DNA of 42,325 nt from an uncultured Eubacteriales bacterium (GCA_905201305.1 CAJKNS010000001.1:1-42325); one strand, 5' to 3'. Positions 6,557 through 23,556 are shown, numbered from the stretch's first letter. Notes: generated by a model not told the origin, from the sequence alone. Program-made: numbers and translations.

Positions 6557-9500
6557 ATGAAGCAAGTGAGGAAAAGGATGAGGAGAGGACTGGCACTGCT
6601 TCTGGCGGTGCTGCAGGTCATGCTGGTGTTTGCCGTGGTGCCAGTCAGCGCGGCGGATGATGCCGCAACCAGCGGCACTTGCGGGGAGAATCTGACGTGG
6701 ACGCTGAGCGGCGGAACGCTGACGATTTCCGGAACTGGCAATATGCAGAACTACGATTGGGGATCTGCGCCATGGCGTAGCAGCACTAACTCAATTCAGC
6801 GCGTTGTGATAGAAGATGGTGTAACGTCCATTGGAGACGATACATTTATTGAATGTGGATGCCTGACTAGCGTAGACATTCCCAATAGTGTAACATCTAT
6901 TGGAAACCATGCATTTATGTACTGCAGCGGTCTGACCAGTATAGCTATTCCAGATAGTGTAACGTCCATTGGGGAAGCTGCGTTTAGTGACTGCAGCCGC
7001 CTGACCAACGTAACTATTCCCGATAGCGTAACTTCCATTGGAAGCAGGACGTTTGCTAACTGTAGCCGCCTGACCAGCGTAACCATCCCGGAGGGTGTAA
7101 CGACCATTGAAGCCTATACATTTTCTTCCTGCAGCAAACTGGGCAGCGTAACGATTCCCGAGAGTGTAATATCCATTGGGGAAGCTGCATTTCGTAGTTG
7201 CAGCAGCCTGACACGCGTAACCATTCCGGACAGCGTAATGTCCATTGGCACCCACGCATTTAATGGATGTAGTTGGCTGATGCGTGTAAACATTCCCGCG
7301 GGTGTAACGTCCATCGAAACCTCTACATTTTATGGATGCGGCAGGCTGACCAGCGTAACGATTCCAGACAGCGTAACGTCCATTGGAAACAGTGCGTTTG
7401 ACGGCTGCTACAGCCTAACCAGTGTAACGATTCCCGATGGCGTAACGTCCATTGGAAACAGTGCATTTAGTAAGTGTGACAGCCTGACCAGCATAACCAT
7501 TCCGGAGGGTGTAACGACCATTGAAGACTATACATTTTCTTCCTGCAGCAACCTGACCAGCGTAACAATTCCCGATGGCGTAACGTCCATTGGAGACTAT
7601 GCATTTAGTGAATGCAGCAGCCTGAGCAACGTAGACATTCCGGACAGCGTAACGTACATTGGAATCTATACATTTCATAACTGCAGCAGTTTGACCAGCA
7701 TAGACATTCCGAATGGCGTAACGTACATTGGAGGCGCTGCATTTTGGGACTGCGACAGCCTAACCAGTGTAACGATTCCCGATGGTGTAACGTTCATTGG
7801 AGACGTTACGTTCGCTTTCTGCCGCAGCCTGACCGATGTAACCATTCCGCACAGCGTAACGTCCATTGGGGGATCTGCATTTAGAGGCTGCAGCAATTTA
7901 GCGGATGTATATTATGGCGGCAACGAGGAAGATTGGGCCAGCATAATCATTGAAGAAGAAAATGATCCCCTCCTTAACGCAACCATCCACTACGCTCCAA
8001 TCGGTGTGGACGAGGGCAAGTACAACGCCCCGCAGACCAGTGTGTGGTACGACATCTGGTGCAGTGGGGAAAGCAGATTTAAATCTTCCGGCTATACGCT
8101 CCAGGTGGGCGATCAGACCTATTCAACGGGTTCAGGCCACCGGGCACAAGCGGATATTCCCACCGCAGATGCAGACAAGGTTTCCATCTCCAGAGAGGGC
8201 TATTTTACTTACAAGCTTCCCGGGGAATTGGTGTATCAATGCCATGAGGTGGTGCTTCATCCGAATAGCGAACAGGGGGCGTTTGTCCAGTTTGTGGGAG
8301 TCAGGAGAGATAACTTTTACTATACAAATCTTGCGGCATCCCACGAAACAGTTTATGAGAATAGTCTGAGGGCGTATGACTTCTATGTGGATATCAACTG
8401 GAATGGTGCTGAGCCGGGAGAAATCTGGCTGGAGCAGGGCGACAACACCATGACGCTGCACGAGGGCAAAAATGCGAACCTGCTGTTGGGCGGCACCTTT
8501 ACGAAATCGTATGATAACCCCGTCAGTTTGTGTTATACCGATGGCAGCGGGAACCGCTATCGCATGGGACTTTATCTGGATGTGCTGTCATCTCAGAGGA
8601 GCATGAAAATCGACGGTGGAGAATCGACTACCAAAACAAATCCCAAAAATGACACCGTGGACGAGATGTGGGGAGACATGTCGCTTTCCTTTGATATGTT
8701 CAATGATTCCGTACCGGTTGAACTAAGTATGACCCCCACAAGCGAGACAGCAGGTACCTTTAAGGGAACGCTGGGCGTAAAGTTTGAGAACTACAGTAAA
8801 AAGCCGGAACTGATTGATTATGTAAAGCGGGGATGTGACCCGAAAAATCCGGATACAGTAAAAGGCGGCGAGGTCGCAGAAAAGATTTTAAAACGATGTG
8901 AAGAAAAAGGAATTGTAACTGTAACACAGAAAAACTCCTTTGCGGTTACAGTAGACACCCAGCTGCTGGGCTACGTAGAGGGAACCTATGAACTGGGGAA
9001 GGACGGCAAGCTGGTAAGCATGGAGTTTACCGACTCCGGAATGCTGGCAAATGTATCGGGCGGTATATCCACCACGCGGCAGCACTACGCTACACCGGTA
9101 CCGTGGTTCTGGCAGCTCGAACTGAAAACAAAGCTGGAGCTGGCGCTTTCCACCGGAAAAGACTGCAATGGAACAGATGTAACCATCAAGCCGGAGGACA
9201 CCGGCGCAAGCCTTGCCGGAAAAGCCAGCCTGACCCTGGGAGGCAAGGTAGCGGCAGGACTCAGTGGAGCTGCGTCTATTGGCGTCAGTGGCTCGGGTAC
9301 CGGACATCTGGATGGGCAGCTGCTCCCCTTTGACCGCTCAAAGCTGAATATCTATGCGGATTTTGATTTTAATCTTTTGAAATTTGAAGTCGGCACATTC
9401 TCTGGCTCATTCTGGCACTACAAGAGCGACCAGTATTATCTAATGAAAAACGGTGTGCTTTTCCCTGACGACCAAAGCTATTCAAGCGGTGGCGGCGGTG

Positions 9501-12478
9501 GTGGCGCTTCTGGCGGCGGAAGCGGTGGCGGCGGTTTCCTTCTTAAGCGGAACGAGCGAGCGGGCGGTTTCCGCCCATACAGCGTTGAAGCGGCTGATGA
9601 AAGCGACGCCTCGATTGAAATGGAACCGATCGCCCGTCTGGACAGTGAGAACTACAGCACATTTGAGGCGAACTCCGGCAAGGCAACTGCGGCGGACGAC
9701 AACGGCTTTACCGGACAGATTATCCAGGACAATACCTACGCCGCCAGCCAGCCCCAGCTTGTTACCTTTGCCGACGGAACAAAGCTGATGGTTTGGGTTG
9801 GCAGCGTGTCGGAAGAGGTGCGGTCTCTGGACGTCAACCGTGCAGCACTGTATTACAGCGTCTACGATGGCTCCAGCTGGAGTACGCCCGCTGTGGTTCA
9901 GGAGGACGGGACAGCGGATGCGTCGCCGGTACTGCGCTGTATCCAGAATACGGCATATCTGGTATGGGTGAATACAGGAAGCGTGCTGACAGACACAGAT
10001 ACCTATGCAGATTATTGCAAGGCAATGGAAATTGGATATGCACGTTTTGACACCGAGACAAAGACATTTACCGATATTGCAAATGTGGAAACCAATGAAG
10101 CGGCGGATTTCCTTCCGGGGCTTACGGTAGTCGATGGTCTGCCTACGGTAGTCTGGCTGCAAAACTCTGAAAACGACCCGCTTCAGCTCAGCGGAACAAC
10201 GGCACTTATGAGCGCCAGTCTGAGCGACGGGACATGGACAGTGGCGGAGCTTGCAGCAAATCTTGGCGCAGTGGATGGTTTGTATATGCCAAATGAGACG
10301 GATGTACTCTCTGTCTACTTCTCTCAGGATACGGATGGCGACGCGAAAACCAGCACAGACAAGGAGATTTTCCTGCTGCAAAATGGTGAAATCCAGCAGC
10401 TTTCGGAGAATGATGTGCCGGATACAAAGCCGTTTATGGTAAACGATGTTGCATATTGGTATCATGACGGCGTCTTAACGGATGGAAGCAATGAGATTGC
10501 CCTTGCTGCGGATACGGATCGCGTTTACGCGGTCAGCAATGGAACAAGAGCAGCAATTCTCTATGCGGATGTGAATGATGATTTCTCTACTACCATTTAT
10601 GCAAGTATCAATGACGGCGGCGCATGGGGCGAGCCGGTGGCACTGTTTCACTCGGACCGGTATATTTCCGCACTGAGCGGCAATATGCTGGAGGATGGAA
10701 CCATTGAGATTGTCGCAGGGGAAAGCCTTGTGGGCGAGGACGGCGTTCAAAGCGCACGAGTTGTGCTGTATCAGGTTGAAAAAGAATGCAATCTGCAAAT
10801 GACAGACCTTGATTATGATGTGCTGTCGCTGAATCCGAATGGTACGCTTGTTATGTATGCGTCGGTGAAGAATACTGGCACGACGGCAGTAGAGAATGCC
10901 ACCATCACGCTGACAGCCGGTGGTCAGGAACTGGAAACTCAGAGCATATCGGAAGCGCTACAGCCCGGTCAAGAGGAAATGTATGCAATTTCCTATCAGC
11001 TTCCCAGTGATTTCGTCCCGGGAGAGATTACTGCAACGGTTACAGCAGAAAATGATGTAGACAGCAGCGATAATGCGGCAAGCTACACACTGCCGACCAT
11101 GGATGTTTCGGTGGAGGATGTGACAGCGATGCAGATGGAAGAACTGACGGAGGTTGCTGCATATATTTCCAACCGGGGCTTTGCGGATCTGACCAATATT
11201 ACGGTTCATCTGCGCAAGGATTCGCCGGATGGTGAAGAGCTTGCGTCTACAACTGTTGATCGCATCGCAGTAAAAACCGGCGAGATCGTTTCGTTCGAAG
11301 TCGATGTACCGAATGACACTGTGGTATATGTAGTAGCAGACGATCTGGAGCTGGAAACAACATATTCCAACAACCAGGGCTTTACTTTGACCCATGAGAA
11401 TGAAGAAATTGCCGAGTCGAAGCCCGATGGTGAGCACGAACACAACTTCCAATTTGTCAAGACCGTTGCGCCGACCTGTAACGATGCAGGCTACGACATT
11501 TATCGTTGCGATTGCGGTGCAGAGGAGCGGCAAAATGAAGTAGCTGCGACCGGACATAGTTGTAAACTTCAGAACGCCCAAGCAGCCACCTGCACCGAAG
11601 ACGGCTACACTGGCGACAAGGTTTGTACCGTCTGCGGTAAAACCGTGGCAGCCGGCGAAGCAGTCCCGGCAAAGGGGCATACCAAGGTAGAGATTCCCGC
11701 GGTAGCGGCAACCTGCACCAAGAACGGAACGACTGCTGGAGTAAAATGCTCCGTTTGCAAGGAGATTCTGCTGGCTCCTGAAAAAGTGCCTGCCAAGGGT
11801 CACACCTGGGACAACGGCAAGGTGACCCAGAAGCCCACCCTGACCAAGGAAGGCGTTAAGACCTATACCTGCACGGTTTGCAATGAAACGAAGACCGAAC
11901 GCATCGAGAAGCTGACCACGTGCGATGCCGGAGAAGATTGTCCGACCCATAATTATAAGGATGTGAAATTCTCCCAGTGGTATCATCTGGATGTGGATTA
12001 TGTTGTAGAGAGCGGTTTGATGGTCGGTGACGGTGGCGGCATTTTTCGCCCTGACAACAAGCTCAGCAGGGCAGAGATGGTACAGATTCTGTACAACTGG
12101 GCTGGAAAGCCGGAGGTAACCGGCAGCTCGAAGTTCTCTGATGTAGCGGACGGCACATGGTATGCCAAGCCGGTCATCTGGGCAGCCGAGAATGGCGTTG
12201 TAAACGGCGTAGGAGACGGAAAGTTTGCCCCCAACGATCCGGTTACCCGGGAGCAGCTGGCAGCAATGCTTTACCGCTATGCCGAAAAGCCGGAGGTTTC
12301 GAACGCACTGACCGATTTTGCGGATGCAAACAAGATTTCCGACTATGCAGTCGATGCAGTAAAATGGGCTGTGGAGCAGGACATTCTGCGTGGCGACGGT
12401 TCGCCTCGCAAGCTGCGCCCCACCGATCACGCAAAGCGCTGCGAAGTCGCTGCTATGCTGCATCGGTATATTGGGTAA
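6557..12478 (+). CDS. giant cell-surface protein: signal peptide, 16 BspA-type leucine-rich repeats, Asp-box-like propeller region, two CARDB-like domains, four Cys-rich modules, three C-terminal SLH domains
   Basis: SD GAGGAGG lies 7 nt upstream. Signal peptide MKQVRKRMRRGLALLLAVLQVMLVFAVVPVSAADD. LRR consensus VTIPDSVTSIGxxAFxxCSSLTS occurs 16 times. Gly linker SSGGGGGGASGGGSGGGG at 9482-9535. Asp-box-like YDGSSWSTP and INDGGAWGEP. CARDB-like VKNTGTTAVENATITL and ISNRGFADLTNITVHL. C-terminal SLH motifs include FSDVADGTWYAKPVIWAAENGVVNGVGDGKFAPNDPVTREQLAAMLYRYA. Confidence 0.9.
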   Translation: MKQVRKRMRRGLALLLAVLQVMLVFAVVPVSAADDAATSGTCGENLTWTLSGGTLTISGTGNMQNYDWGSAPWRSSTNSIQRVVIEDGVTSIGDDTFIECGCLTSVDIPNSVTSIGNHAFMYCSGLTSIAIPDSVTSIGEAAFSDCSRLTNVTIPDSVTSIGSRTFANCSRLTSVTIPEGVTTIEAYTFSSCSKLGSVTIPESVISIGEAAFRSCSSLTRVTIPDSVMSIGTHAFNGCSWLMRVNIPAGVTSIETSTFYGCGRLTSVTIPDSVTSIGNSAFDGCYSLTSVTIPDGVTSIGNSAFSKCDSLTSITIPEGVTTIEDYTFSSCSNLTSVTIPDGVTSIGDYAFSECSSLSNVDIPDSVTYIGIYTFHNCSSLTSIDIPNGVTYIGGAAFWDCDSLTSVTIPDGVTFIGDVTFAFCRSLTDVTIPHSVTSIGGSAFRGCSNLADVYYGGNEEDWASIIIEEENDPLLNATIHYAPIGVDEGKYNAPQTSVWYDIWCSGESRFKSSGYTLQVGDQTYSTGSGHRAQADIPTADADKVSISREGYFTYKLPGELVYQCHEVVLHPNSEQGAFVQFVGVRRDNFYYTNLAASHETVYENSLRAYDFYVDINWNGAEPGEIWLEQGDNTMTLHEGKNANLLLGGTFTKSYDNPVSLCYTDGSGNRYRMGLYLDVLSSQRSMKIDGGESTTKTNPKNDTVDEMWGDMSLSFDMFNDSVPVELSMTPTSETAGTFKGTLGVKFENYSKKPELIDYVKRGCDPKNPDTVKGGEVAEKILKRCEEKGIVTVTQKNSFAVTVDTQLLGYVEGTYELGKDGKLVSMEFTDSGMLANVSGGISTTRQHYATPVPWFWQLELKTKLELALSTGKDCNGTDVTIKPEDTGASLAGKASLTLGGKVAAGLSGAASIGVSGSGTGHLDGQLLPFDRSKLNIYADFDFNLLKFEVGTFSGSFWHYKSDQYYLMKNGVLFPDDQSYSSGGGGGGASGGGSGGGGFLLKRNERAGGFRPYSVEAADESDASIEMEPIARLDSENYSTFEANSGKATAADDNGFTGQIIQDNTYAASQPQLVTFADGTKLMVWVGSVSEEVRSLDVNRAALYYSVYDGSSWSTPAVVQEDGTADASPVLRCIQNTAYLVWVNTGSVLTDTDTYADYCKAMEIGYARFDTETKTFTDIANVETNEAADFLPGLTVVDGLPTVVWLQNSENDPLQLSGTTALMSASLSDGTWTVAELAANLGAVDGLYMPNETDVLSVYFSQDTDGDAKTSTDKEIFLLQNGEIQQLSENDVPDTKPFMVNDVAYWYHDGVLTDGSNEIALAADTDRVYAVSNGTRAAILYADVNDDFSTTIYASINDGGAWGEPVALFHSDRYISALSGNMLEDGTIEIVAGESLVGEDGVQSARVVLYQVEKECNLQMTDLDYDVLSLNPNGTLVMYASVKNTGTTAVENATITLTAGGQELETQSISEALQPGQEEMYAISYQLPSDFVPGEITATVTAENDVDSSDNAASYTLPTMDVSVEDVTAMQMEELTEVAAYISNRGFADLTNITVHLRKDSPDGEELASTTVDRIAVKTGEIVSFEVDVPNDTVVYVVADDLELETTYSNNQGFTLTHENEEIAESKPDGEHEHNFQFVKTVAPTCNDAGYDIYRCDCGAEERQNEVAATGHSCKLQNAQAATCTEDGYTGDKVCTVCGKTVAAGEAVPAKGHTKVEIPAVAATCTKNGTTAGVKCSVCKEILLAPEKVPAKGHTWDNGKVTQKPTLTKEGVKTYTCTVCNETKTERIEKLTTCDAGEDCPTHNYKDVKFSQWYHLDVDYVVESGLMVGDGGGIFRPDNKLSRAEMVQILYNWAGKPEVTGSSKFSDVADGTWYAKPVIWAAENGVVNGVGDGKFAPNDPVTREQLAAMLYRYAEKPEVSNALTDFADANKISDYAVDAVKWAVEQDILRGDGSPRKLRPTDHAKRCEVAAMLHRYIG
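6803..7906 (+). repeat. 16 tandem in-frame 69-bp (23-codon) LRR units inside the surface-protein gene
   Basis: Counted from the translation: 16 consecutive 23-aa units, from VVIEDGVTSIGDDTFIECGCLTS to VTIPHSVTSIGGSAFRGCSNLAD, with no length variation. DNA blocks such as GTAACGTCCATTGG and AGCGTAACGATTCC recur. Confidence 0.9.
11432..11913 (+). repeat. four Cys-rich (CxxxG...CxxC) zinc-ribbon-like modules separated by A(T/K)GH
   Basis: The four modules read PTCNDAGYDIYRCDCG..ATGH, ATCTEDGYTGDKVCTVCG..AKGH, ATCTKNGTTAGVKCSVCK..AKGH and LTKEGVKTYTCTVCN. Confidence 0.6.
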
Positions 12479-12636: not shown

Positions 12637-14325
12637 TTACCGCGCGTTATAACGATCCAGGGCAGTCTGATAGATGTCGATATACTCCTGAACGCCCATG
12701 GTTTCCATCTGGCTCAGGTACTCATCCCAGGTGCTGATGTCCGCCTGCCCCAGGAGAATCTTATACCAGGTTTCCTGGCTGAGGGTATCCAGATCACTGT
12801 AAATCTGAGACGCACGGCTGCTTTCCGCCGAGGTCAGGGATACATTAGGCATATCGTAGTCTGCATCGCCAACCTGGCTCCAAATCTCCACCGCGGCAAG
12901 GGCATTGTCGTCCAGCAGAGAAACCTCAATTTCCTTGGGGCAAACGCCGGGCTGCTGGGTCAGAGTTACATAGCACTGGCGCGCAATGCCCACAGACAGA
13001 CCGTCAGAGTTATTCAGCAGCATATCCGTCCAATGGGGAACGCCGTTATCGTCATACTCGAAGGTAACGCCTTCGATGCCATAGTTGGACAGCAGGCGAC
13101 CGGGCTCGGAATACCAGAAGTCACACCATGCCATGGCAAGCTCAATGTTGGAGCAGGTTGTGGTAATGGTCATACCCTTGGAGGTATCCAGGGTGATGGT
13201 GGTGATGAAATGGTTCTCGCCTTCTTCATTGGGAAGGATGGGCATTCCCACGTAGGTAACGGTATCCGAGCAGTATGCCTTCAGGTTTGAAGCAGGCGCA
13301 TTGAATACACCCACATCGCCGCCGGTTTTCTTGCCCTCGGTCACAGGGCTCATGGGGTTCTCGTCATAGTTGTAGAAGTCTGCATTCAGGAGTCCCTCAC
13401 TGTACCACTTCGTAATGGTCTCCAAATACGCCTTGAAACCAGCCTCCATGGGACCGTACTTTACCGTTCCATCCACCTGATACAGCTCCGCGGTGGCGTC
13501 AAAAGCGCCCATCAGGAAGCCGCCGGCAGCAAATGCATTATTGCTCATGAACAGCGGATCTGCCAGACCATATTCGGTTTTAAACTTGGTCAGAACATCA
13601 TACAGCGCATCCACCGTTGTTGGGACCTCCAGTACAGCGGCATCCAGCAAATCCCCTCGGATAACGGGACCCTCCAGCAGCGGCACATCAAAGGTTCCAT
13701 TGTAAGAATTCAGGTAATACATCTCCAGAATATTGCCGTCGTCGGTCTTTGCGTCCTTTGCAATGTCCGGGTTCTCATTCAGAATTTTTGCATAGTTGGG
13801 GGCATACTCCAGATAGTTTGCCATATCCACCACAATCTCTTCCTCAAACGCAGAGGTCAGACCGGCAGGATAGTTGGCGGATCGGACCATATCGGGCCAG
13901 TCACCAGAGGCAATCACCAGGGAAAACTGGTCGTTGGCAACCTCCTGCATGACTGCCTGAATGTTCACCTTTACACCGGTGATCTTTTCAGCCTCCACAT
14001 AGATCTGATGGTTGCCCAGCTCTCCGATGTTATCCGTGACGTTGCTGTTTGTAATGGCAAACATAGTAAGCGTCTCGCCGTCGGTGGTCAGCGGCAGCTC
14101 ATAGACTTCCTCTTCGACCGTTTCTTCCGAAGAAGACGCTTCCGGTTCCGAAGAAGCCTCCTGCACCGCTTCTTCGGATACGGCTGGAGCCTGCTCGGAT
14201 GCTGACGCGGTTTCCTGTTTGGCAGGCTCCGGCGCAGAGCTTGCGGCACTGTCTCCATCGGAGCAGCCGCTCAGCAGTCCAAACGCCAACACCAATGCCA
14301 GCAGCATTGCGGTTATCTTTTTCAT
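12637..14325 (-). CDS. extracellular solute-binding lipoprotein, large family-1 (LplA-like) type: SBP-A
   Basis: SD AAGGAGG lies 7 nt upstream. Lipoprotein signal MKKITAMLLALVLAFGLLSGC is followed by an acidic S/A/E/P linker. It shares motifs with the other four SBP copies (ASGDWPDM, YQVDGTVKYGP, C-terminal IYQTALDRYNAR). Confidence 0.85.
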   Translation of the reverse strand: MKKITAMLLALVLAFGLLSGCSDGDSAASSAPEPAKQETASASEQAPAVSEEAVQEASSEPEASSSEETVEEEVYELPLTTDGETLTMFAITNSNVTDNIGELGNHQIYVEAEKITGVKVNIQAVMQEVANDQFSLVIASGDWPDMVRSANYPAGLTSAFEEEIVVDMANYLEYAPNYAKILNENPDIAKDAKTDDGNILEMYYLNSYNGTFDVPLLEGPVIRGDLLDAAVLEVPTTVDALYDVLTKFKTEYGLADPLFMSNNAFAAGGFLMGAFDATAELYQVDGTVKYGPMEAGFKAYLETITKWYSEGLLNADFYNYDENPMSPVTEGKKTGGDVGVFNAPASNLKAYCSDTVTYVGMPILPNEEGENHFITTITLDTSKGMTITTTCSNIELAMAWCDFWYSEPGRLLSNYGIEGVTFEYDDNGVPHWTDMLLNNSDGLSVGIARQCYVTLTQQPGVCPKEIEVSLLDDNALAAVEIWSQVGDADYDMPNVSLTSAESSRASQIYSDLDTLSQETWYKILLGQADISTWDEYLSQMETMGVQEYIDIYQTALDRYNAR

Positions 14326-14343: not shown

Positions 14344-15183
14344 TTAGGGCTTGTATTTCGATGCGTCGTATCCGTCGCATTCCACTACAATGTAAGAGTT
14401 CTCTTCCTTCCATGTTTCATAGGGCTCCGGAATTTTCGGCTCCGGATAGCTGGGTTCACAGGGCGAATTGGTGCCGGATTTCTGCACCAGCGTCTTTTGC
14501 CCCACATAGGCGATGGTAGGCATAGGCGGTCCGCCGGCAGGCTGGTCGGTCTTTCCGCCCTTGGGCGGCGGCGCCATCATCCCCATGCCCTGGTACTCCA
14601 AGCCGCACTCCATATGGTCCACCCGATGCCAGAGCTTCCACTGACCATCCTCCCGGATGAATTCGGCAGAATAGCGGGACAATCCCAAGGAGGTTTCCGG
14701 CTTTCCGGTTTCCTGATTCAGGTGGGACATATATGCATACGCCATCCATACGCCGCGCGCCGTCTGCCGGTCCTTTGCAATTTCCACATAGGGACTCAGC
14801 AGCATATTCATCACCTTATAGCCGGGACCATATTGCGAATCGAACTTCTCCCCATAAAACTTCTCTGCCACCGCTCTTCCCTGCGCCTTCATGGCAGAGG
14901 TCATGCCGGTGTAATAATTATATACGTTTTCCCGTCCGTAATAAGCCATGGAACCGTGGGCATAGACAATATCGTCCCGCTTGGACCAGTATTTCTCCAG
15001 CTCTTTCTCCTGGAGCTGCCCGTAATAGCCGAACACATGCTTGCCCATGGCGTTCATGATCTGGCGGTAGTCGTCTGCTGCCTCCGCCTGCTGCCGCAGC
15101 GCATTCAGCGCTGCGGATTCTGTTTTTACCGCTGCTTTGGCGGCTTCCAGCGCCGCAGTTACGCGAGACTGTGCATCCGTCAT
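14344..15183 (-). CDS. NTF2/SnoaL-like domain protein with N-terminal helical extension and Pro-rich C-terminal tail (A1)
   Basis: Core motifs are VEIAKDRQTARGVWMAY and FIREDGQWKLWHR, typical of a SnoaL-like cone fold. The tail is PPPKGGKTDQPAGGPPMP...KIPEPYETWKEENSY. The start ATG overlaps the A2 stop (ATGA at 15180-15183), with GGAAGGAGG upstream. The family call is by eye. Confidence 0.75.
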   Translation of the reverse strand: MTDAQSRVTAALEAAKAAVKTESAALNALRQQAEAADDYRQIMNAMGKHVFGYYGQLQEKELEKYWSKRDDIVYAHGSMAYYGRENVYNYYTGMTSAMKAQGRAVAEKFYGEKFDSQYGPGYKVMNMLLSPYVEIAKDRQTARGVWMAYAYMSHLNQETGKPETSLGLSRYSAEFIREDGQWKLWHRVDHMECGLEYQGMGMMAPPPKGGKTDQPAGGPPMPTIAYVGQKTLVQKSGTNSPCEPSYPEPKIPEPYETWKEENSYIVVECDGYDASKYKP

Positions 15184-15992
15184 ACGTCGTCGCCTCCTTC
15201 CGCATATCCGTCCTTGATGATTTGGATATAGGACTGTGCCGGATCCCAGGTGTCATAGGGCTGCGGGATTTTTGGCTCCCGATAGGTGCAGCTATAGGGC
15301 TTGTAGATCATATCTCCCATCTGGGCAATGGTCTTGACCCCTTCCTGAAACAGCGGCACGTTGTTCTCAAAGGGCAGCGTATCCAGCATATTGCAGGGCA
15401 GCATGGAATCCACATAATCTCTTCGGTGCCACATTTTCCAGGTTCCGTTTTCCAGATAGAATTCATCGCCATATTTGGCGAGTCCAAAGCTGGGGGACGC
15501 GCTGCCGTCGGAATCCATCTGGCTCATAAAGGTATGCGCCATCCAGATGCCCTGCGCCGTCTGTCCGTCGCCGGCAATTTCCACCACCGGAGAGCTGATG
15601 ACATTGTGCACCCGATAACCCGGTCCATCCGGCGGGTCCACCTGTAAGCCATAGTTCTTCAGCGCGTTGGCTCTTCCGTTGGCGCACATCTTTTTCGGCG
15701 TCTCAATGTAATACTGATAGGTGGATTCCCGCCCATAGAACGCTTCTCTGCCATGGGCATATACGATGTTGTCCACCGTCTGCGCCCAATACTGGTCCAG
15801 TTCGTCCTTGTGGAGATGCTGGTAGTAGCCCCAGTTGTGGCTTGCCTGGGCATTGACCCCCTGCCGGTAGGCGTCCGCCTGTGCCGCAGCCTTTTCGATT
15901 TCCGCAACCTCCTGGGCAAATCTCTCGTTGGCGGCTTCCAGCTTTTCTGCCTCTGCGGTCCATTCCCGCAGCTTTTCAAGCATATCGCTCAT
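15180..15992 (-). CDS. NTF2/SnoaL-like domain protein (A2), paralog of A1 and A3
   Basis: N-terminal Ala/Glu-rich helix (TAEAEKLEAANERFAQEVAEIEKAAAQADAYRQ). Core VEIAGDGQTAQGIWMAH and FYLENGTWKMWHRRDY. Tail KIPQPYDTWDPAQSY. ATGA overlap with the A3 stop at 15989-15992, with AGGAGGGG 8 nt upstream. Confidence 0.75.
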   Translation of the reverse strand: MSDMLEKLREWTAEAEKLEAANERFAQEVAEIEKAAAQADAYRQGVNAQASHNWGYYQHLHKDELDQYWAQTVDNIVYAHGREAFYGRESTYQYYIETPKKMCANGRANALKNYGLQVDPPDGPGYRVHNVISSPVVEIAGDGQTAQGIWMAHTFMSQMDSDGSASPSFGLAKYGDEFYLENGTWKMWHRRDYVDSMLPCNMLDTLPFENNVPLFQEGVKTIAQMGDMIYKPYSCTYREPKIPQPYDTWDPAQSYIQIIKDGYAEGGDDV

Positions 15993-16900
15993 TCAAACAT
16001 CCCCTCCTTCTGCACATTGGAGGTTTCATAGATCCAGGTGTCATAGGGCTCCGGCAGCTTTGGCGCTCCGATGGGCACCGCTGTGGGGGAATAGCTGCCG
16101 TTTGTCACCTTGATTTTTGTAATCGTCGTGGGTTTGGGGTTTTCCACCATGGGCTTGGGCGGCTTTCCGTCCTTGGTGGGCGGAGGTCCGATCATCGCCG
16201 CGGGGTTCTCCTCAAATACCACGTCTGCGTAATTCCGTCTGTGCCAGATTTTCCACTGACCGTCCTCCAGAATAAATTCTCCGGAATAGCGGGACAGTAC
16301 ACCCTGGGTTTTCAGATTGCCATCCTCACCAATGCAGCCCATAAACGAGTGTGCCATCCAGATGCCCTGGGCGGTCAGACCGTCCTCGGCAATCTCGATA
16401 TATGGCGTTCCAATGAGATTCATGTTTATGTAGCCGGGGGTTTTATCCCCCTCCGGCACCGGCTTTCCCATGGCGCTGAGCTGCTGCCTTGCCTGCTCGC
16501 TGCGCTTTTTTGCCGCTTCCACATAATATCGGCGGACTGCCCGCTGCCCCACATAGGCGAGATCGCCGTTGGCATAGACGATATCCTCCCGTTTCGACCA
16601 GTACTTCTCCAGTTCTTCTTCATAATCCTGGTTCAGGCAGCAATGGACATGTGCCGACATCAGATTCATAATTTCCCGGTAGGCTTCCGCTTTCATGATC
16701 CGTCGTTTTGCCTGCTCCAGCCGCGCTTCCAGCTCCGTGCGGTATTTTCTTGCCGTCTCCAGCCGGCTGACCAGTGCATCACAAGCCTGAGATACCTCCA
16801 CTTCCGGTACCACGTTGATCCCTTCTTTCTGATTGGATGTATCCAGTGTATCAAATTCACGCCTGCCGGAAAAGAAGAAAGCCCTTTGCATTCTTTTCAT
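15989..16900 (-). CDS. NTF2/SnoaL-like domain protein (A3), first gene of operon A
   Basis: The track ORF (15989-17377) is over-extended. ATG at 16900 (MKRMQRAFFFSG...) has GGAG 7 nt upstream. Core IEIAEDGLTAQGIWMAH and FILEDGQWKIWHRRNY. Tail GPPPTKDGKPPKPMVENPKP...KLPEPYDTWIYETS. Confidence 0.7.
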   Translation of the reverse strand: MKRMQRAFFFSGRREFDTLDTSNQKEGINVVPEVEVSQACDALVSRLETARKYRTELEARLEQAKRRIMKAEAYREIMNLMSAHVHCCLNQDYEEELEKYWSKREDIVYANGDLAYVGQRAVRRYYVEAAKKRSEQARQQLSAMGKPVPEGDKTPGYINMNLIGTPYIEIAEDGLTAQGIWMAHSFMGCIGEDGNLKTQGVLSRYSGEFILEDGQWKIWHRRNYADVVFEENPAAMIGPPPTKDGKPPKPMVENPKPTTITKIKVTNGSYSPTAVPIGAPKLPEPYDTWIYETSNVQKEGMFE

Positions 16901-16985
16901 TTTTTCGCTCCAGAGCAAAAAATAAAAAAACAAGCAAAAATCAAAACATTCCCATGGACCGCGGAGCACTTTGGGTCTTTTCTTC

Positions 16986-17015
16986 TTATCTGTGATTATG
17001 ATATAATGAAGATAA
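16986..17015. promoter_or_regulatory. nested palindrome overlapping an extended -10 promoter (TGaTATAAT, 16999-17007) in the divergent A3 / AraC intergenic region
   Basis: Sequence is TTATCT-gtg-ATTAT-gat-ATAAT-ga-AGATAA. The TGATATAAT element lies about 32 nt upstream of the AraC start. Confidence 0.5.
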
Positions 17016-17038
17016 TAGTTAGAAAGCGAGGCGTTTTC

Positions 17039-18232
17039 ATGGAGCAACCAAACATGTTCCCCGTTACAATCAATGAAGAGCTGTTCCGTATCCTGTTCCC
17101 CAGCGTAAAGGAAGCGGCAAACGCCTCTGACACCAACGCCATCATGGGGCTGCTCACAGATTCCTGCTATGCCCTGCTGCTCTATAAGCCGGTTCCCGGC
17201 AGCACTGCCGACCAAACCGCCCGTCAGGAGGACGCGTTCCGCGCCTTTCTTCAGGAGACACACCGGATCTGCTGCTTCCGTTTTCACGGACATAATATGG
17301 GACTGATCTCCTTTTCCACTTGGGATTGGGACAGGGTCCAGGCACAGACGGTTCAAATTGAGCGCTCCATCAGCCAATATCTACATACTGCGCTGGAGCA
17401 AACCGGCGTTGAGCTCAACATGTCCATCGGGCGTCCCTTTATGGGACTGTTAAACCTCCGCGAGGCATATTCCGAGCTCATCAACTCCACCATGACCTTT
17501 GCCCTGCGTCCGCAAAATCTTGTGGTGTCGGAGTATGACATCGTCAGCGATCCGGCGCTTATGGTGGACCCATATCCCCGCTCTGAAATTGAGCTTCAAT
17601 TGGCAGATGCAATCATTAAGCTGGAAATCGGGAAAGCGGAAAGCCTGATGGAGAACATCATTCAGCACGAAATGTCCACCCTGCACCTGAAGCTTTCGTT
17701 TCTTCCCCGCATGGCGATCCGGATTGAATGGATGCTGATTGTGCTGCATGTGCCGCGGAACTCCGGAGACGTCAGCAGCGCCGAAATCTACAGCTACCCC
17801 CAGCGCATCAAATATGCCGAAAGTCTCCAGGAGGGGATTGCGCTGATTCACGCCTGCTTTCAAAAGCTGGACGATTACTATAATGCCTTCCGCTTCAACG
17901 TTGGAAAAGACATCTCTCAAATCACGGATTATATTCATACCCAAGCCAGCAATCCCAATCTCAGCGCAACCATGATCTGTGACCGCTTCCGAATCAGCCC
18001 GTCCTACCTGTCCCATATGTTTAAGCGCCGCACGGGAATCAAGCTGGTTGATTATATCCACAAAGCACGTATCAGCCAGGCAAAGCAGCTGCTGGAAACT
18101 ACCACCGATACCATTGCGGAAATCAGCCGGCAGGTGGGCTATACCAGCAGCGCCAGCTTTTCCACCACCTTTAAGCGCTATGAAGCCATCACGCCAAGAG
18201 AATACCGGGATCGATTCCGGATGAATCATTGA
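17039..18232 (+). CDS. AraC family transcriptional regulator (about 290-aa N-terminal domain plus C-terminal double HTH)
   Basis: The track ORF 15881-18232 is over-extended across the antisense of the NTF2 genes. ATG at 17039 (MEQPNMFPVTINEE...) has GAGG 7 nt upstream. The C-terminus ICDRFRISPSYLSHMFKRRTGIKLVDYIHKARISQAKQLLETTTDTIAEISRQVGYTSSASFSTTFKRYEAITPREYR is canonical AraC HTH. Confidence 0.85.
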   Translation: MEQPNMFPVTINEELFRILFPSVKEAANASDTNAIMGLLTDSCYALLLYKPVPGSTADQTARQEDAFRAFLQETHRICCFRFHGHNMGLISFSTWDWDRVQAQTVQIERSISQYLHTALEQTGVELNMSIGRPFMGLLNLREAYSELINSTMTFALRPQNLVVSEYDIVSDPALMVDPYPRSEIELQLADAIIKLEIGKAESLMENIIQHEMSTLHLKLSFLPRMAIRIEWMLIVLHVPRNSGDVSSAEIYSYPQRIKYAESLQEGIALIHACFQKLDDYYNAFRFNVGKDISQITDYIHTQASNPNLSATMICDRFRISPSYLSHMFKRRTGIKLVDYIHKARISQAKQLLETTTDTIAEISRQVGYTSSASFSTTFKRYEAITPREYRDRFRMNH

Positions 18233-18260: not shown

Positions 18261-19202
18261 ATGGATATTCAGCAGCTTCGATACTTTACCGTCCTTGCAA
18301 CCACCGGAAACTTCACCCGGGCATCGACAGAATTGCACCTTACCCAGCCGGCATTGAGCAAATCCATCTCCGCCATGGAAGCGGAGCTGGGGCTGGAACT
18401 GCTTGCACGGACAAAAAAAGGCGCCACGCTGACCGAGTGCGGGAAGGAATTCTGCCGGTTTGCCCAAAGCGTTCTAACGGAATATGACCACACCTGCCAG
18501 CGCATGATGGAAATTCGCGAAAATCGCAAAAACGCCGTAAACCTTACCGTCACGCTGCCGGAAATCTTTGTTCAGATTCTGGAGGGCTTTCATCATCGGC
18601 ATCCCGACATTCAGGTGCGGCTTCCCGCCAGCAGTACTATTTCCGCGCAGGAAATGCTTGCATTGGGCAGCCTGGATTTTGTGGTAAACACTGCGCCCAT
18701 GAAGGACGAACGCATAGAATGCCAGCCGCTGATGCAGGACGAATACCTGTTGATGGTGCCGGAGGACATGCCGTTTACCACCGGTCAGGCAATTGACCTC
18801 AGCATGTTCCGGGAAGAGCCATTTATCATGCCGCAAAGCGAATCCGAAAGCAGGCGGCAGATGGAGTTTTTCTGCAGTCTGGCAGGCTTCACCCCCAACA
18901 TTGCCTTTGAAGTAACCGAAAACGAAATGACCAGGAAGCTGGTGCAGTTTGGCTACGGCGTTGCATTTATCCCGGGAGTTTCTGCGGTAAATACCATTGA
19001 AATTCCCCCGGAAAGCGAAGGACTTGGAAAGGTCAGCGTCAAATTTCTGCGGATTCGCAACCCCATTTGCTATCGCACCATTGGAATCAACCGGATTAAA
19101 AACCAAAAGCTCTCCACCAGCGCAGACTTGCTGCTGAACTACTTTATTGACTTCTTTCAAACCGCACAGCAGCGGTCCGATCGCGTGTTTCCCCCTCTTT
19201 GA
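18261..19202 (+). CDS. LysR family transcriptional regulator
   Basis: N-terminal wHTH MDIQQLRYFTVLATTGNFTRASTELHLTQPALSKSISAMEAELGLELLARTKKGATLTECG. AGGAG lies 9 nt upstream. Confidence 0.9.
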   Translation: MDIQQLRYFTVLATTGNFTRASTELHLTQPALSKSISAMEAELGLELLARTKKGATLTECGKEFCRFAQSVLTEYDHTCQRMMEIRENRKNAVNLTVTLPEIFVQILEGFHHRHPDIQVRLPASSTISAQEMLALGSLDFVVNTAPMKDERIECQPLMQDEYLLMVPEDMPFTTGQAIDLSMFREEPFIMPQSESESRRQMEFFCSLAGFTPNIAFEVTENEMTRKLVQFGYGVAFIPGVSAVNTIEIPPESEGLGKVSVKFLRIRNPICYRTIGINRIKNQKLSTSADLLLNYFIDFFQTAQQRSDRVFPPL

Positions 19203-19244
19203 CGCGCCATTCCAAAAACGACTGATGACAGTAACTTTTTCGAC

Positions 19245-19274
19245 TTGGACGATTGGCGAACCTCCTTATATAAT
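19245..19274 (+). promoter_or_regulatory. SigA-type promoter TTGGAC-18 nt-TATAAT upstream of SBP-B
   Basis: TTGGAC at 19245-19250 and TATAAT at 19269-19274. The gene starts at 19322. Confidence 0.55.
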
Positions 19275-19314
19275 ATCTGTAGGAACAAGAATTCCACAGG
19301 ATTATATAAGGAGG
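19261..19314. promoter_or_regulatory. long inverted repeat pairing the -10 region with the SBP-B ribosome-binding site
   Basis: CCTCCTTATATAAT (19261-19274) is the perfect reverse complement of ATTATATAAGGAGG (19301-19314). Arms extend imperfectly through CTGTAGG / CCACAGG. Confidence 0.6.
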
Positions 19315-19321
19315 TTTTTTC

Positions 19322-21055
19322 ATGGAAAGAAGAACAAAGCTGTTTTCGCTTCTGCTGTGCCTTGCGCTGATTGCTGCAGTGTTCAGTGGCTGCGGTTCCC
19401 AAACAGCGGAAAGCACTGCCGCTGCGTCCAGCGCTCAGACGACAGAAGTAACGGCAAGTGCACCGGAACCGGCAGCGATGCCGGAGCCGGAGATTGCATC
19501 GGTATCCAGCGCCGAGGAAGCCACAATGGAGGAAGCCGAGCCCCCAGCCCCTGCCTATACCATTTCCTATCCGCTGGAGGGAGATGATCTGGAGCTGACT
19601 TATTGGATGCCCTTTAAATCTCCCCACGAATCCATCCAGACCTTTGACGAGTTCCCGGTGCTTGCAACCGCAGAGAAATTAACGGGTGTCAAGGTCAGCT
19701 TCACCTCCGAAAATATGATGACCGCCAGCGAGAAGTTCAACCTGATGGTTGCCTCCGGCGATTACTGCGACCTTCTGGGCGGCGCACTGAGCTATTACAC
19801 CGGCAACTATAACGAAGCCATTGCCGATGGCATTGCCATTGACCTCAGCGGCATGATTGAGGAATTTGCGCCGGACTATTACGCCATGCTGACCGCCGAT
19901 GAAAACAACTACAAGGCTGCCGTGGATGACGACGGCGTTATGATTGCGATTTATACCATTAAGGATCAGTATTTCCCGGTTATGGGCGGCACCGTCATTC
20001 GTCAGGACTGGATGGACGCCCTGGGCTACAAATCCATTGATTCCATTGACCAGATGGACGATTTCCTCCGGGACTGCAAGAGTACCTATGGTGCCGGTTA
20101 TCCCCTTATGCTCACCTATAGCAATTATGAAAACATCCTCAGCGCTGCATACGGCATTGGCGGCGGAGATTGCACCAACGGTCTTTATCAGGTGGACGGC
20201 GACGTTCGCTACACCTATGTACAGCCCGAGTATAAGGAGTATCTGAAGCTGGCAGCCGCATGGTATCAGGACGGCATCATCGGCTCCGACTTTATGAACG
20301 TCGGCACCACCGGTCTTCCCATGGAAACCTATACCTATGTATACAGCGGCGATACCGCAATCATCGGCGCAACCGCAGCCGAAATTGCATCCATCGAAGC
20401 CGAAACCGGAAACGGCTGCAAGCTGATTGGCTTCAACTATCCTGCCTCTGACGGCAGCGGCGTGACCCATTTTACCGATATGTCCATGATTAAGAGCAGC
20501 GAGCATGCCCTGATTACGGAGCAGTGCGCACATCCGGAAATTGCCCTGGAATGGCTAAACTACTGGTTCACCGAGTACGGCGCAATCGTTGCAAACTACG
20601 GCACCGAAGGGGAATCCTTCACATTTGACGAAAACGGCAATCCCCAGTGGACGGATTTGATTACGGCAAACGAATATGATCTGCCTGCAAACCGCGCCTC
20701 TGCAATTTACACGCTGTATGCGCATACAACGCCCATCCATACCATGGAGACTCGTCTGTCCTCCACCTTTACCCAGGAGCAGAAGGACGTTTACGATGTA
20801 TGGATGACCGGAATTGACGGCAACAATCTGCTGCCCGCGGTATCCCTGACCAAGGAAGAGTCCGAAACCGCACGCAGCCCGCTTGCTGATATCCAGACCT
20901 ATGTGGATGAGAATGTTGCAAAGTTCATCAACGGCACCAGAAGTTTGGACGAGTTTGACGACTTTGTTGCAGATATTGAAGGAATGGGGCTTGCAGACAT
21001 TATCGAGGTCTATCAGGCTGCATTGGAGCGCTATAACCAGCGCGCCGTTGGCTAA
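19322..21055 (+). CDS. extracellular solute-binding lipoprotein, large family-1 type: SBP-B
   Basis: SD TAAGGAGG. Lipobox MERRTKLFSLLLCLALIAAVFSGC plus an acidic linker. Paralog motifs ASGDYCDL, YQVDGDVRYTY and VYQAALERYNQR. Confidence 0.85.
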   Translation: MERRTKLFSLLLCLALIAAVFSGCGSQTAESTAAASSAQTTEVTASAPEPAAMPEPEIASVSSAEEATMEEAEPPAPAYTISYPLEGDDLELTYWMPFKSPHESIQTFDEFPVLATAEKLTGVKVSFTSENMMTASEKFNLMVASGDYCDLLGGALSYYTGNYNEAIADGIAIDLSGMIEEFAPDYYAMLTADENNYKAAVDDDGVMIAIYTIKDQYFPVMGGTVIRQDWMDALGYKSIDSIDQMDDFLRDCKSTYGAGYPLMLTYSNYENILSAAYGIGGGDCTNGLYQVDGDVRYTYVQPEYKEYLKLAAAWYQDGIIGSDFMNVGTTGLPMETYTYVYSGDTAIIGATAAEIASIEAETGNGCKLIGFNYPASDGSGVTHFTDMSMIKSSEHALITEQCAHPEIALEWLNYWFTEYGAIVANYGTEGESFTFDENGNPQWTDLITANEYDLPANRASAIYTLYAHTTPIHTMETRLSSTFTQEQKDVYDVWMTGIDGNNLLPAVSLTKEESETARSPLADIQTYVDENVAKFINGTRSLDEFDDFVADIEGMGLADIIEVYQAALERYNQRAVG

Positions 21056-21090
21056 CAAACCATACACCGCACAATAAGGAGGAACTAGAT

Positions 21091-21828
21091 ATGACACTGG
21101 AAGAACAGCTGAAAGAATTACGATTGGCGCAGGCGAGAACCCAGGCATATATTGACTGCTGCAATGTAATCGGAAAATATGTATGCTATCACGCTGCCGA
21201 CGAGCAGGAAAAGATCGCTTCCCTGTTTGCCACAAAGACCGAGGGCTGCCGCATTGAGATGATGTCCGGCGTGTTTGAGGGTGACGATGGCATTGAAGCA
21301 TTTTTCCACTCCCATCCCAACGCAGACGACGACGCCAACCGGAAGGGCTTCCTGCACATCCATATGCTCACCACCCCCATTGTGGAGGTTGCAGCCGACG
21401 GCGAGTCTGTCATGGGCTCCTGGTATTCCCCCGGCGTGGAGAGCAACACCTTTGGCGGAACCCTCAACGGCTTCTGGGCTTGGATGAAGTATGGCGCGAT
21501 TTTCAAGAAAGAGGACGGTCAGTGGAAAATCTGGCATCTGCATACCTACAGCATTTTCATGTGCCCCTATGACAAGTGCTGGACCGAGGTAGAGCCCTAT
21601 GGCCTTAAGAAGGAAATTCCGCCGGAGATGCTGGAAATGATGAAGAAGGAAATGGACGAAAAGGGAATGAAGGGTCCCGGAGGTCCCGGCGGCTTTGGCG
21701 GCGGTCCGATGTACACGCCTAAGCCTGCTACCACCTGGTGGGGCTTCTCCAAGGACTCCATGTACCCCGGCGACCAGCCCACACCTCCTACGCCCTACGA
21801 CACGCTGCCTGATACAGTAGAGATCTAA
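21091..21828 (+). CDS. NTF2/SnoaL-like domain protein (B1)
   Basis: AAGGAGG lies 8 nt upstream. Core VEVAADGESVMGSWYSP and IFKKEDGQWKIWHLHTY. Gly/Pro tail KGPGGPGGFGGGPMYTPKP...PTPPTPYDTLPDT. Confidence 0.7.
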   Translation: MTLEEQLKELRLAQARTQAYIDCCNVIGKYVCYHAADEQEKIASLFATKTEGCRIEMMSGVFEGDDGIEAFFHSHPNADDDANRKGFLHIHMLTTPIVEVAADGESVMGSWYSPGVESNTFGGTLNGFWAWMKYGAIFKKEDGQWKIWHLHTYSIFMCPYDKCWTEVEPYGLKKEIPPEMLEMMKKEMDEKGMKGPGGPGGFGGGPMYTPKPATTWWGFSKDSMYPGDQPTPPTPYDTLPDTVEI

Positions 21829-21834
21829 ACGACA

Positions 21835-21871
21835 ACTCCCCTGATTCACATGGAACGAATCAGGGGAGTTC
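21835..21871 (+). terminator. stem-loop after B1
   Basis: AACTCCCCTGATTC (21835-21848) and GAATCAGGGGAGTT (21858-21871) are perfect 14-bp arms, followed by CCTTTCTGT. Confidence 0.65.
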
Positions 21872-21922
21872 CTTTCTGTATCGGTATTCTCTCCAGGTTA
21901 TAATGGGCGGCAAAAGAGTTAT

Positions 21923-21951
21923 TTTACATTGCCCCAAAACCCGTTTATAGT
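21923..21951 (+). promoter_or_regulatory. candidate promoter TTTACA-17 nt-TATAGT for the SDR gene pair
   Basis: TTTACA at 21923-21928 and TATAGT at 21946-21951, about 30 nt upstream of the SDR start. Confidence 0.5.
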
Positions 21952-21980
21952 AGAGATAGCAAAATGCAGGAGGGAATGAT

Positions 21981-22742
21981 ATGGAAATGCTGAAAGACAA
22001 GGTTGCGCTGATTACCGGCGGAAGCTCCGGCATCGGTGCGGAAACCGCCCGGGTATTTGCAAAGCATGGCGCCAAGGTTGCGATCTTTGCCCGGGGACAG
22101 GAGAAAATGGACCGGGTTGCCGCTGAATTAAAGGCACTGGGCGCAGCTTGTCTGACCATTGCCGGAGATGTTACAAAGTCAGAGGATTGCAGCGCTGCGG
22201 TGGAGCAGGTGGTAGCGGTCTTTGGGCGCATTGATGTGTTGGTCAATAACGCAGGGGCAGGCGATTTTCACACCACCACCGAAAAGTGCAGCGATGCATT
22301 CTGGGATCAAATGATCGCCCTGAATCAGTCCTCGGTGCTGTATTGCTGTCGGGCTGCACTGCCCCATATGCGCGCCCAGGGCAGCGGTTCCATTGTCAAT
22401 CTCTCTGCCATTGCAGGGGTTTACGGCAATGCCGGCGTCAGCTATTCCGCGGCAAAGGCAGCGGTCATTGCCATGACAAAAAATATTGCGCTCCAGTATA
22501 CGGGCACCGATATTCGCTGCAACGCCGTCTGCCCCGGTCCCACCGCCGTAGATCGTATGGATGGGAGAGAGGACGCCTTTATGGATTTGGATTTCTTTGC
22601 CATTACAGACCGGCATATGGATTCCTCCATTCCCTTTGCAGCTGCGGAGGATCAAGCCAATGTCATTGCGTTCCTCGCCAGCGATCTGTCCCGCTGCATC
22701 ACCGGTCAAGCCATTGTCACGGATAACGGGCGCTGCCTGTAA
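21981..22742 (+). CDS. SDR family (short-chain dehydrogenase/reductase) oxidoreductase
   Basis: AGGAGGG SD. Cofactor motif TGGSSGIGAE, NNAG, and catalytic S...YSAAK. Confidence 0.9.
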   Translation: MEMLKDKVALITGGSSGIGAETARVFAKHGAKVAIFARGQEKMDRVAAELKALGAACLTIAGDVTKSEDCSAAVEQVVAVFGRIDVLVNNAGAGDFHTTTEKCSDAFWDQMIALNQSSVLYCCRAALPHMRAQGSGSIVNLSAIAGVYGNAGVSYSAAKAAVIAMTKNIALQYTGTDIRCNAVCPGPTAVDRMDGREDAFMDLDFFAITDRHMDSSIPFAAAEDQANVIAFLASDLSRCITGQAIVTDNGRCL

Positions 22743-22759
22743 GAGAAGGAGGCAATATC

Positions 22760-23542: not shown

Positions 23543-23556
23543 CTAATAGAAACGCG

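Follow-up and report, generated by a model that had tools for sequence, protein, structure and literature searches.

The closest characterised relatives of the proteins described here, which are encoded by three consecutive genes (A3, A2 and A1) in a 42,325-nucleotide (nt) stretch of DNA from an uncultured Eubacteriales bacterium (GCA_905201305.1, CAJKNS010000001.1:1-42325; this whole stretch is hereafter called the window), are LdpA, BaiE, LinA and scytalone dehydratase, all of them cofactor-less eliminases and all of them described as single-gene homo-oligomers. We propose that a single cytoplasmic NTF2-like enzyme (SnoaL_4 type, LdpA-related) is built from A3, A2 and A1 as three non-redundant subunits, most likely as a 1:1:1 heterotrimer. 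This is the best-supported reading, although our own judgement on it is evenly divided, and three separate homotrimers are its main rival. If the proposal is true, a very common enzyme fold would have gained a new quaternary arrangement in this conserved three-subunit form, which would also show a route from a symmetric trimer to specialised subunits; if the genes encode three ordinary homotrimers, the finding shrinks to an uncharacterised catabolic operon.

LdpA (formerly LsdE) is the erythro-diarylpropane (beta-1 lignin dimer) gamma-formaldehyde lyase of Novosphingobium and Sphingobium, with solved structures 8abt-8abw in the PDB. It is a homotrimer in which the long C-terminal arm embraces the adjacent monomer, and its Motif I dyad, His97-Asp40, is essential by mutagenesis; a His-Asp dyad is also used by LinA and scytalone dehydratase (PMC9942872). 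Motif II consists of Glu143 together with a tyrosine oxyanion hole (Tyr35, Tyr147). LdpA is both the best profile match and the best structural match to the A proteins, and resembles them in having an NTF2-like cone after a helical segment, which aligns with the N-terminal extension found here, and a long C-terminal arm past the cone, in a protein of about 250 residues. It differs from them in being a homotrimer encoded by one gene, and none of its essential residues His97, Asp40 and Glu143 is kept in A1, A2 or A3. Identity to A1 and A2 in Foldseek alignments is only 15-21%, and the LdpA alignment ends before the P-x-P-Y-x-T-W motif of the A proteins. The settings also differ, since LdpA belongs to an aerobic sphingomonad lignin pathway, whereas the A proteins are found in gut Clostridia.

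BaiE is the bile-acid 7-alpha-dehydratase of Clostridium scindens, C. hiranonis and C. hylemonae. A single gene encodes it; it forms homotrimers, has a His-Asp-Tyr catalytic set, and works alongside short-chain dehydrogenases (SDRs) and Old Yellow Enzyme (OYE)-type iron-sulfur (Fe-S) flavoenzymes, which are gene kinds that also adjoin family members here. It is a SnoaL_4-type NTF2-like lyase, and its structures (4leh, 4l8p, 4n3v, 4l8o) rank high among the structural matches of the A proteins. The A proteins are nevertheless not members of the BaiE family: NCBIfam gave no match for A1, A2, A3 or any family member, the window holds no bai genes, and BaiE, at about 167 residues, is without the N-terminal helix and the C-terminal arm, both of which are present in the A proteins (270-279 residues). 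LinA (gamma-hexachlorocyclohexane dehydrochlorinase) and scytalone dehydratase, which are single-gene homotrimers, are NTF2-like eliminases and strong structural neighbours as well, but they are short (146-153 residues) and have the His-Asp dyad that is absent from the A proteins. Cooperating NTF2-like paralogs, fusions and heteromers have precedents in the polyether epoxide hydrolases MonBI and MonBII, the two-domain Lsd19 and the eukaryotic NTF2-like heterodimer NXF1-NXT1; these, however, are pairs and not triplets, belong to other sub-families with other chemistry or are non-enzymatic, and have no binding-protein gene. In the searchable literature we found no description of NTF2-like triplets such as those reported here.

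The A Operon

Four genes lie in a row on the minus strand, namely A3, A2, A1 and SBP-A, the last of which encodes a solute-binding protein (SBP), and a regulator gene diverges from them. The features of the locus are listed below.

17039-18232, plus strand: AraC-family regulator, divergent from A3, 397 residues (HTH_18, E 1.5e-21; HTH_AraC)
16814-17038, no strand: divergent intergenic control region from the AraC gene to A3, shorter if A3 begins at ATG 16900
15989-16813, minus strand: A3, gene 1 of the triplet, 274 residues from the most likely start, GTG 16813 (SnoaL_4, 37.7 bits)
15989-15992, minus strand: ATGA overlap of A3 stop and A2 start, with the same 4-nt overlap in L001, L003 and L005
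15180-15992, minus strand: A2, gene 2 of the triplet, 270 residues (SnoaL_4, 30.9 bits)
15180-15183, minus strand: ATGA overlap of A2 stop and A1 start (overlap of 8 nt in L001, 17 nt in L003 and 4 nt in L005)
14344-15183, minus strand: A1, gene 3 of the triplet, 279 residues (SnoaL_4, 35.3 bits)
12637-14325, minus strand: SBP-A, family-1 extracellular solute-binding lipoprotein, 562 residues (SBP_bac_8)

A preliminary description of this locus, made from the sequence alone, had located both ATGA overlaps exactly, and its account of the remaining signals was accurate too. A Shine-Dalgarno sequence lies within the preceding gene at each junction (GAAGGAGGGG, 8 nt before the ATG, and GGAAGGAGG, 9 nt before the ATG), and the TAA of A1 is followed by an 18-nt gap (TCAGAAGGAGGATCTATC, which includes AGGAGG) and then by the ATG of SBP-A. 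A weak sigma-70-like site on the minus strand at 17040-17012 has 9 of 12 matches and is a consensus match only.

The start of A3 is most likely GTG 16813, and the gene would thus span 15989-16813, because its orthologs begin at the equivalent codon. P0027, P0028, P0030, P0032 and the L005 gene call all start with MV(P/S)E..V(S/A)Q at this position; A3 read from the GTG begins MVPEVEVSQ, and the orthologs MVSENNVAQ or MVPEIDVSQ. An AAGGGA box lies upstream of this GTG, and the resulting protein is close in size to A2 and A1. ATG 16900 is used in one public gene call, giving 303 residues, and the stretch of about 30 residues that it adds is probably untranslated 5' sequence. The leader of about 30 residues that had been ascribed to A3 is therefore most likely an artefact, and as a functional feature it was rejected, since it is not present in the orthologs.

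Fold and Architecture of the A Proteins

Pairwise comparison makes A1, A2 and A3 unambiguous paralogs, far beyond chance, with identities of 42% for A1 and A2 (E 5e-62), 39% for A1 and A3 (E 4e-58) and 36% for A2 and A3 (E 3e-46). At 36-42% identity the earlier term "close paralogs" overstates their similarity, and of the shared motifs then quoted, which are present, DG[QT]WK does not extend to all three proteins, since A2 reads ENGTWKMWHR. All three pass the Pfam SnoaL_4 (PF13577) gathering cut-off of 24 bits. A1 has 34 homologs in a database of 5.8 billion proteins. A single-sequence search of the PDB with A1 was marginal (E 0.13); the family profile, when compared with solved structures, matched only the LdpA chains 8abt-8abw (E 1.4e-8), with profile positions 19-205 aligned to LdpA residues 5-186, a match that extends from the pre-cone helix to the first part of the C-terminal arm.

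The AlphaFold2 models agree with this assignment. The A1 model has a mean predicted local distance difference test score (pLDDT) of 76.7, with a confident cone at about residues 30-190 and values below 50 for residues 197-228, and the A2 model has a mean of 82.1; in the cores of both, most 10-residue blocks across the cone have a mean pLDDT of 85-96. The alpha+beta cone of NTF2-like proteins, with three helices on a curved antiparallel sheet, is present in the models. Foldseek searches with A1 and A2 ranked LdpA first (E 2e-9 for A1), followed by BaiE, LinA and scytalone dehydratase, and gave a probability of 1.00 for many NTF2-like structures. Each A protein consists of four segments: a helical extension at the N-terminus (32-41 residues) that runs directly on into cone helix alpha-1; the cone; a low-confidence linker rich in proline and glycine; and a C-terminal arm of about 80 residues, modelled with low confidence in the monomers. 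The arm ends in P-x-P-Y-x-T-W, which is invariant across A1-A3 (P252 and Y255 included). In the form P-x-P-Y-x-T-[WF] the motif is 84-100% conserved in every group of the wider family, and it is the real signature of the family beyond SnoaL_4; this family-wide invariant feature was absent from the list of features in the preliminary description.

Secretion of the triplet was considered and rejected, as no signal peptides were found in A1-A3 or in C1-C3, the proteins of a second triplet in the window. P0033, a distant homolog that is 30% identical to A1, starts with a lipoprotein signal peptide (…LASLAGLTAC), so at least some family members are probably extracytoplasmic, unlike the triplet proteins.

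Conservation of the Triplet in Related Loci and in the Wider Family

The triplet organisation is conserved in orthologous loci and is not reduced there to a single copy, the outcome that, according to the preliminary description, would have refuted its reading. The order of a divergent AraC gene followed by A3, A2, A1 and an SBP gene occurs in four distinct loci, namely L001/L006, L003/L004, L005 and the window (the window region is also present in assembly L085), the compared loci coming from other metagenomes or metagenome-assembled genomes. The divergent AraC gene adjoins the triplet in L001, L003, L004 and L005, and A1 is followed by an SBP gene in L003, L005 and, in truncated form, L001. 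Overlaps at the A3/A2 and A2/A1 junctions are 4 and 4, 4 and 8, 4 and 17, and 4 and 4 nt in the four loci. Orthologs of the A proteins are 70-88% identical (A3 orthologs 70-80%), and A1, A2 and A3 are each monophyletic in a neighbour-joining tree built without bootstrap. The ratio of non-synonymous to synonymous substitution (dN/dS) is 0.04-0.16 for each paralog wherever synonymous divergence (dS) is measurable, dS being saturated in most pairs, and by this measure each paralog is under purifying selection. Because order and overlaps are kept in four loci, dN/dS is low and synonymous sites are mostly saturated, comparative evidence of this kind indicates that the triplet is old and maintained, and is not a recent neutral duplication.

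Arrays of three are also the commonest form in the wider family. A search of 1.84 billion representative proteins returned 1,291 clusters at E <=0.001 and 780 at E <=1e-10, and at least 388 relatives occur in species-representative genomes, mostly of uncultured Oscillospiraceae of gut and rumen, with scattered relatives in Barnesiella, Desulfobacterales, Anaerolineales, Streptomyces and Novosphingobium. About 80 related loci were compared. Among 95 complete tandem arrays in 85 sequences there are 52 triplets, 26 singles, 9 doubles, 5 quadruples, 1 five-copy and 2 six-copy arrays, counts that are approximate as a few loci are duplicated or overlapping. The best match of a triplet member in another locus lies at the same array position in 55 of 56, 56 of 56 and 55 of 56 cases for the three positions. 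All 116 array junctions measure 23 nt or less and 43 of them are 4-nt overlaps (both window A junctions are -4 nt), a tightness that is slightly optimistic because start-codon choice favours the nearest start. Six representative proteins (P0044, P0049, P0053, P0054, P0055, P0060) are fusions of the p1 and p2 subunits, colinear with gene order, in which each half keeps its own P-x-P-Y-type C-terminal motif, and multi-domain proteins number about 13 among the best 150 representative matches.

In the neighbour-joining tree of the family, again without bootstrap, the p1, p2 and p3 subunits of the widespread, older triplet type each form a large clade of their own. A1, A2 and A3 lie together inside one 31-leaf clade whose other leaves are single- or double-copy genes, and the tree shows no one-to-one orthology of A3, A2 and A1 with p1, p2 and p3. 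The A triplet therefore appears to be a separate triplication, and three-copy arrays would have arisen at least twice, which is easier to explain if the number of subunits in the particle is three.

Pockets and Candidate Catalytic Residues

The catalytic dyad of LdpA has no counterpart in the A proteins and their orthologs. His97 aligns with Asn126 of A1, and asparagine is also found in A2, A3 and all orthologs; this part of the alignment is free of gaps, is anchored by the strongly conserved IA.DG.TA.G strand, and is robust. Asp40 is replaced by Gly, Gln or Asn, and Glu143 by Gly, Gly and Val in A1, A2 and A3, while the pocket tyrosines equivalent to Tyr74 and Tyr147 (the latter being Y171) are conserved. 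Tyr35 corresponds to Phe, Trp and His in the HMMER alignment but to His49 in the MAFFT alignment, the two programs being 2 residues apart in the Tyr35/Asp40 region; the HMMER alignment was used because it preserves a shared G-Y-Y motif, and assignments in this region are uncertain. Since the dyad is absent, any lyase chemistry must depend on other residues, for which H49, D138, E178 and H186 are candidates; these four are invariant in A1-A3 and common family-wide, and the A-type pockets would then hold a non-canonical catalytic set. Elsewhere in the family the His97 equivalent is mostly kept in related singletons and in p2 and p3 subunits, and is Lys or Arg in p1.

The three A pockets also differ from one another. 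In the A clade, 44 positions of the cone are conserved within each paralog and different between paralogs, with clusters at residues 48-56, 124-132 and 162-172, the parts aligned to active-site segments of LdpA; the three subunits would therefore have distinct, maintained pockets.

One Enzyme or Three

The earlier suggestion of a stoichiometric hetero-oligomer is thus favoured by comparison, through the retention of the triplet, selection on each paralog, the arrays with their junctions and fusions, and the trimeric relatives; the physical assembly of the three proteins is what we infer from these. In the proposed mechanism, overlapping stop and start codons would bring about coupled, roughly equimolar synthesis of A3, A2 and A1. 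By analogy with LdpA, each subunit may supply a cone-shaped pocket, and the C-terminal arm of each, with its P-x-P-Y-x-T-W end, may clasp the neighbouring subunit. The complex is predicted to act as a cofactor-less hydro-lyase of the dehydratase or eliminase type on a putative bulky organic molecule derived from diet or plants, which would be imported via co-transcribed SBP-A and a permease encoded elsewhere, and the divergent AraC regulator would control expression. The hydro-lyase reading was chosen because a dehydratase or eliminase combined with ene-reductases and SDRs, which are found near family members, recalls the way in which reductive dehydroxylation pathways work; bile-acid 7-dehydroxylation (bai), for one, uses an NTF2 dehydratase together with flavin reductases and SDRs. 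The A system would then probably be an LdpA-related NTF2-like enzyme that has become three-gene, and probably three-subunit, with the canonical dyad lost in the A clade.

Several observations weigh against this proposal. All relatives with solved structures are homo-oligomers, single-copy members of the family are frequent (26 arrays), and the p1-p2 fusions come from the older triplet type and not from the A type. The canonical His-Asp dyad is absent from A1, A2, A3 and their orthologs, and three differentiated pockets would fit three separate enzymes equally well. In the N-terminal extension, 33 of 35 positions vary inside ortholog groups, so that its sequence is almost unconstrained. Finally, no gene for a binding-protein-dependent permease was found in the 42-kb window, despite four large lipoprotein-type SBPs; apart from an ABC-2 exporter pair (29294-31095) and an ABC_membrane open reading frame (31538-32671) it has no transporter genes, so the SBPs must either depend on a permease whose gene lies elsewhere or serve a different role.

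Homotrimers are clearly viable for this fold, given that singletons are common and solved relatives homo-oligomeric, and A3, A2 and A1 could be three separate trimeric enzymes that carry out successive or parallel steps and are co-transcribed only for a shared pathway. The conserved pocket signature of each paralog, the frequency of singletons, the homotrimeric state of LdpA and the lack of sequence conservation in the N-terminal extension are all compatible with this, and BaiE, LinA and scytalone dehydratase are likewise homo-oligomers. We nonetheless regard it as unlikely, although to be taken seriously, since it leaves unexplained the dominance of arrays of exactly three, which seem to have arisen at least twice, the near-perfect conservation of gene order, the universally tight or overlapping junctions, and the p1-p2 fusions colinear with gene order. 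The position-specific active-site changes of the older triplets (Lys or Arg in p1 at the place of LdpA His97) also suggest that the subunits are not equivalent, as opposed to autonomous.

Less probable still, and in our view rather improbable, is a non-catalytic role as ligand-binding or scaffold proteins, for example as cytoplasmic carriers or sensors for SBP-A cargo that perhaps feed the AraC regulator. Many NTF2-like proteins are binding modules, the His-Asp dyad is missing from all three A proteins, and the operon has no other enzyme. However, the equivalents of Tyr74 and Tyr147 are kept, the four candidate residues are invariant in the three paralogs and largely so family-wide, the histidine is kept in close clade members and in p2 and p3 subunits, and redox enzymes of the kinds usual in catabolic pathways are the neighbours of family members. 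A tandem duplication that is recent and selectively neutral, for which the tandem arrangement in one orientation might speak, is hardly credible when the paralogs are so much less alike than the orthologs (36-42% against 70-88%), each is monophyletic with low dN/dS and saturated dS, and the order is kept in four distinct loci.

Extended from this operon to the family, the heterotrimer proposal becomes more ambitious and is advanced here only tentatively: there may be, in Oscillospiraceae of gut and rumen and in scattered other bacteria, a large and so far unrecognised class of NTF2-like enzymes that are obligate alpha-beta-gamma heterotrimers with three differentiated pockets per particle, organised in dozens of modules of regulator, binding protein and triplet, every module being adapted to its own diet-derived compound. 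Evolution would have reached the three-subunit state at least twice, and in the A type, in which the dyad is replaced, the chemistry would be new for the fold. Modules of regulator, SBP and triplet abound in the uncultured Oscillospiraceae of gut and rumen, often beside flavin ene-reductases. Little has been charted of how these bacteria metabolise dietary, plant or steroid-like compounds, and the adjoining SBP and regulator offer direct experimental handles on the substrate of each module.

N-Terminal Helices

Helical N-termini, which had been noticed from the sequence, are supported by the AlphaFold2 models, with a single continuous helix at residues 2-55 of A2 (54 residues, pLDDT about 90) and helices at 2-18 and 23-55 of A1. 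Hydrophobic periodicity at heptad a/d positions, in a crude register test against shuffled sequences, gave p of about 0.005 for A1, about 0.002 for A2 and 0.47 (not significant) for A3. The net charge of the helix is specific to the paralog, being +1 to +5 in A3 (8/8 sequences), -5 in A2 (4/4) and about 0 in A1, and the basic, acidic and neutral helices of A3, A2 and A1, respectively, may add a helical bundle that favours mixed assembly.

The idea that these helices are the assembly element draws on the long A2 helix, the periodicity in A1 and A2 and the paralog-specific charge; it is opposed by the variable positions of the extension and by the widespread older-type triplets, which have only 10-12 residues before alpha-1, the long extension being clade specific. 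In addition, the A1 helix is broken at residues 19-22, where some orthologs have prolines. A role in assembly is thus weakly supported, and the helices are possibly a specificity element, secondary to the C-terminal arm.

All four A2 orthologs have an asparagine at residue 22-23 (window 15923-15928; ANE, END, END, ANA) within an otherwise variable helix. Asn22 of the window A2 occupies an "a" position when the helix is read in its best heptad register, and speculatively it resembles the register-setting buried asparagine of coiled coils.

Genomic Context and Other Modules in the Window

SBP-A has a lipoprotein-type signal sequence ending in LLSGC, as read from the translation. Its nearest solved relatives are the proteins entitled "Extracellular solute-binding protein family 1" (5xs8, 5gub and 5gx8; E about 1e-37) and the alginate-binding AlgQ1/AlgQ2, which are large-cleft oligosaccharide binders. 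The A operon itself contains no other enzyme gene; in other loci, triplets have as neighbours LysR or AraC regulators, SBPs, OYE-type Fe-S flavoenzymes and fumarate-reductase-like flavoproteins.

Two further modules of the window contain family members. The first of them, around the single-copy member B1 (18261-27879), has a gene set that resembles a pathway of a dehydratase and reductases.

18261-19202: LysR regulator
19322-21055: SBP-B, without a Pfam match at E <=0.01
21091-21828, plus strand: B1, single-copy family member after SBP-B (SnoaL_4, 48 bits)
21981-22742 and 22760-23542: two short-chain dehydrogenases downstream of B1
23661-24650, minus strand: second LysR regulator
24701-26314: fumarate-reductase/KstD-like flavoprotein
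25999-27879: another SBP (open reading frame)

The other module contains a second triplet, of the older, widespread type. Its members C1-C3 are only 19-25% identical to each other, and each groups with the same-position subunit of triplets from other genomes.

34701-36446, plus strand: SBP-C, upstream of C1-C3
36500-37246, plus strand: C1
37259-37996, plus strand: C2
37989-38816, plus strand: C3

Upstream of SBP-C lie a divergent LysR gene (32974-33882) and an unannotated open reading frame of 235 residues (33981-34688).

In two of the A-type loci (L005, 4965-6368; L003, 13761-15164), a conserved protein of 467 residues is encoded after an SBP-like gene. It has only a weak match to a hot-dog dehydratase domain (FAS1_DH_region, E 0.001-0.004, under the gathering score) and may be an alternative hydro-lyase of the same kind of module; in L005 its gene is followed by one for an OYE-type Fe-S flavoenzyme.

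Streptomyces sequences L061, L073 and L082 carry four tandem family genes. The neighbours of the L061 array are an SDR, a two-subunit 2-oxoacid:ferredoxin oxidoreductase and an SBP_bac_5 ATP-binding cassette (ABC) transporter; this context was tried as a clue to the pathway and rejected, as it matched no known pathway. The Streptomyces carriers are in culture and would allow genetic work on the family.

The end of the SBP-A operon faces a convergent gene (6557-12478, plus strand) for a cell-surface protein of 1973 residues, with BspA-type leucine-rich repeats (LRR_5, E 9e-184), a CARDB domain and SLH domains at the C-terminus.

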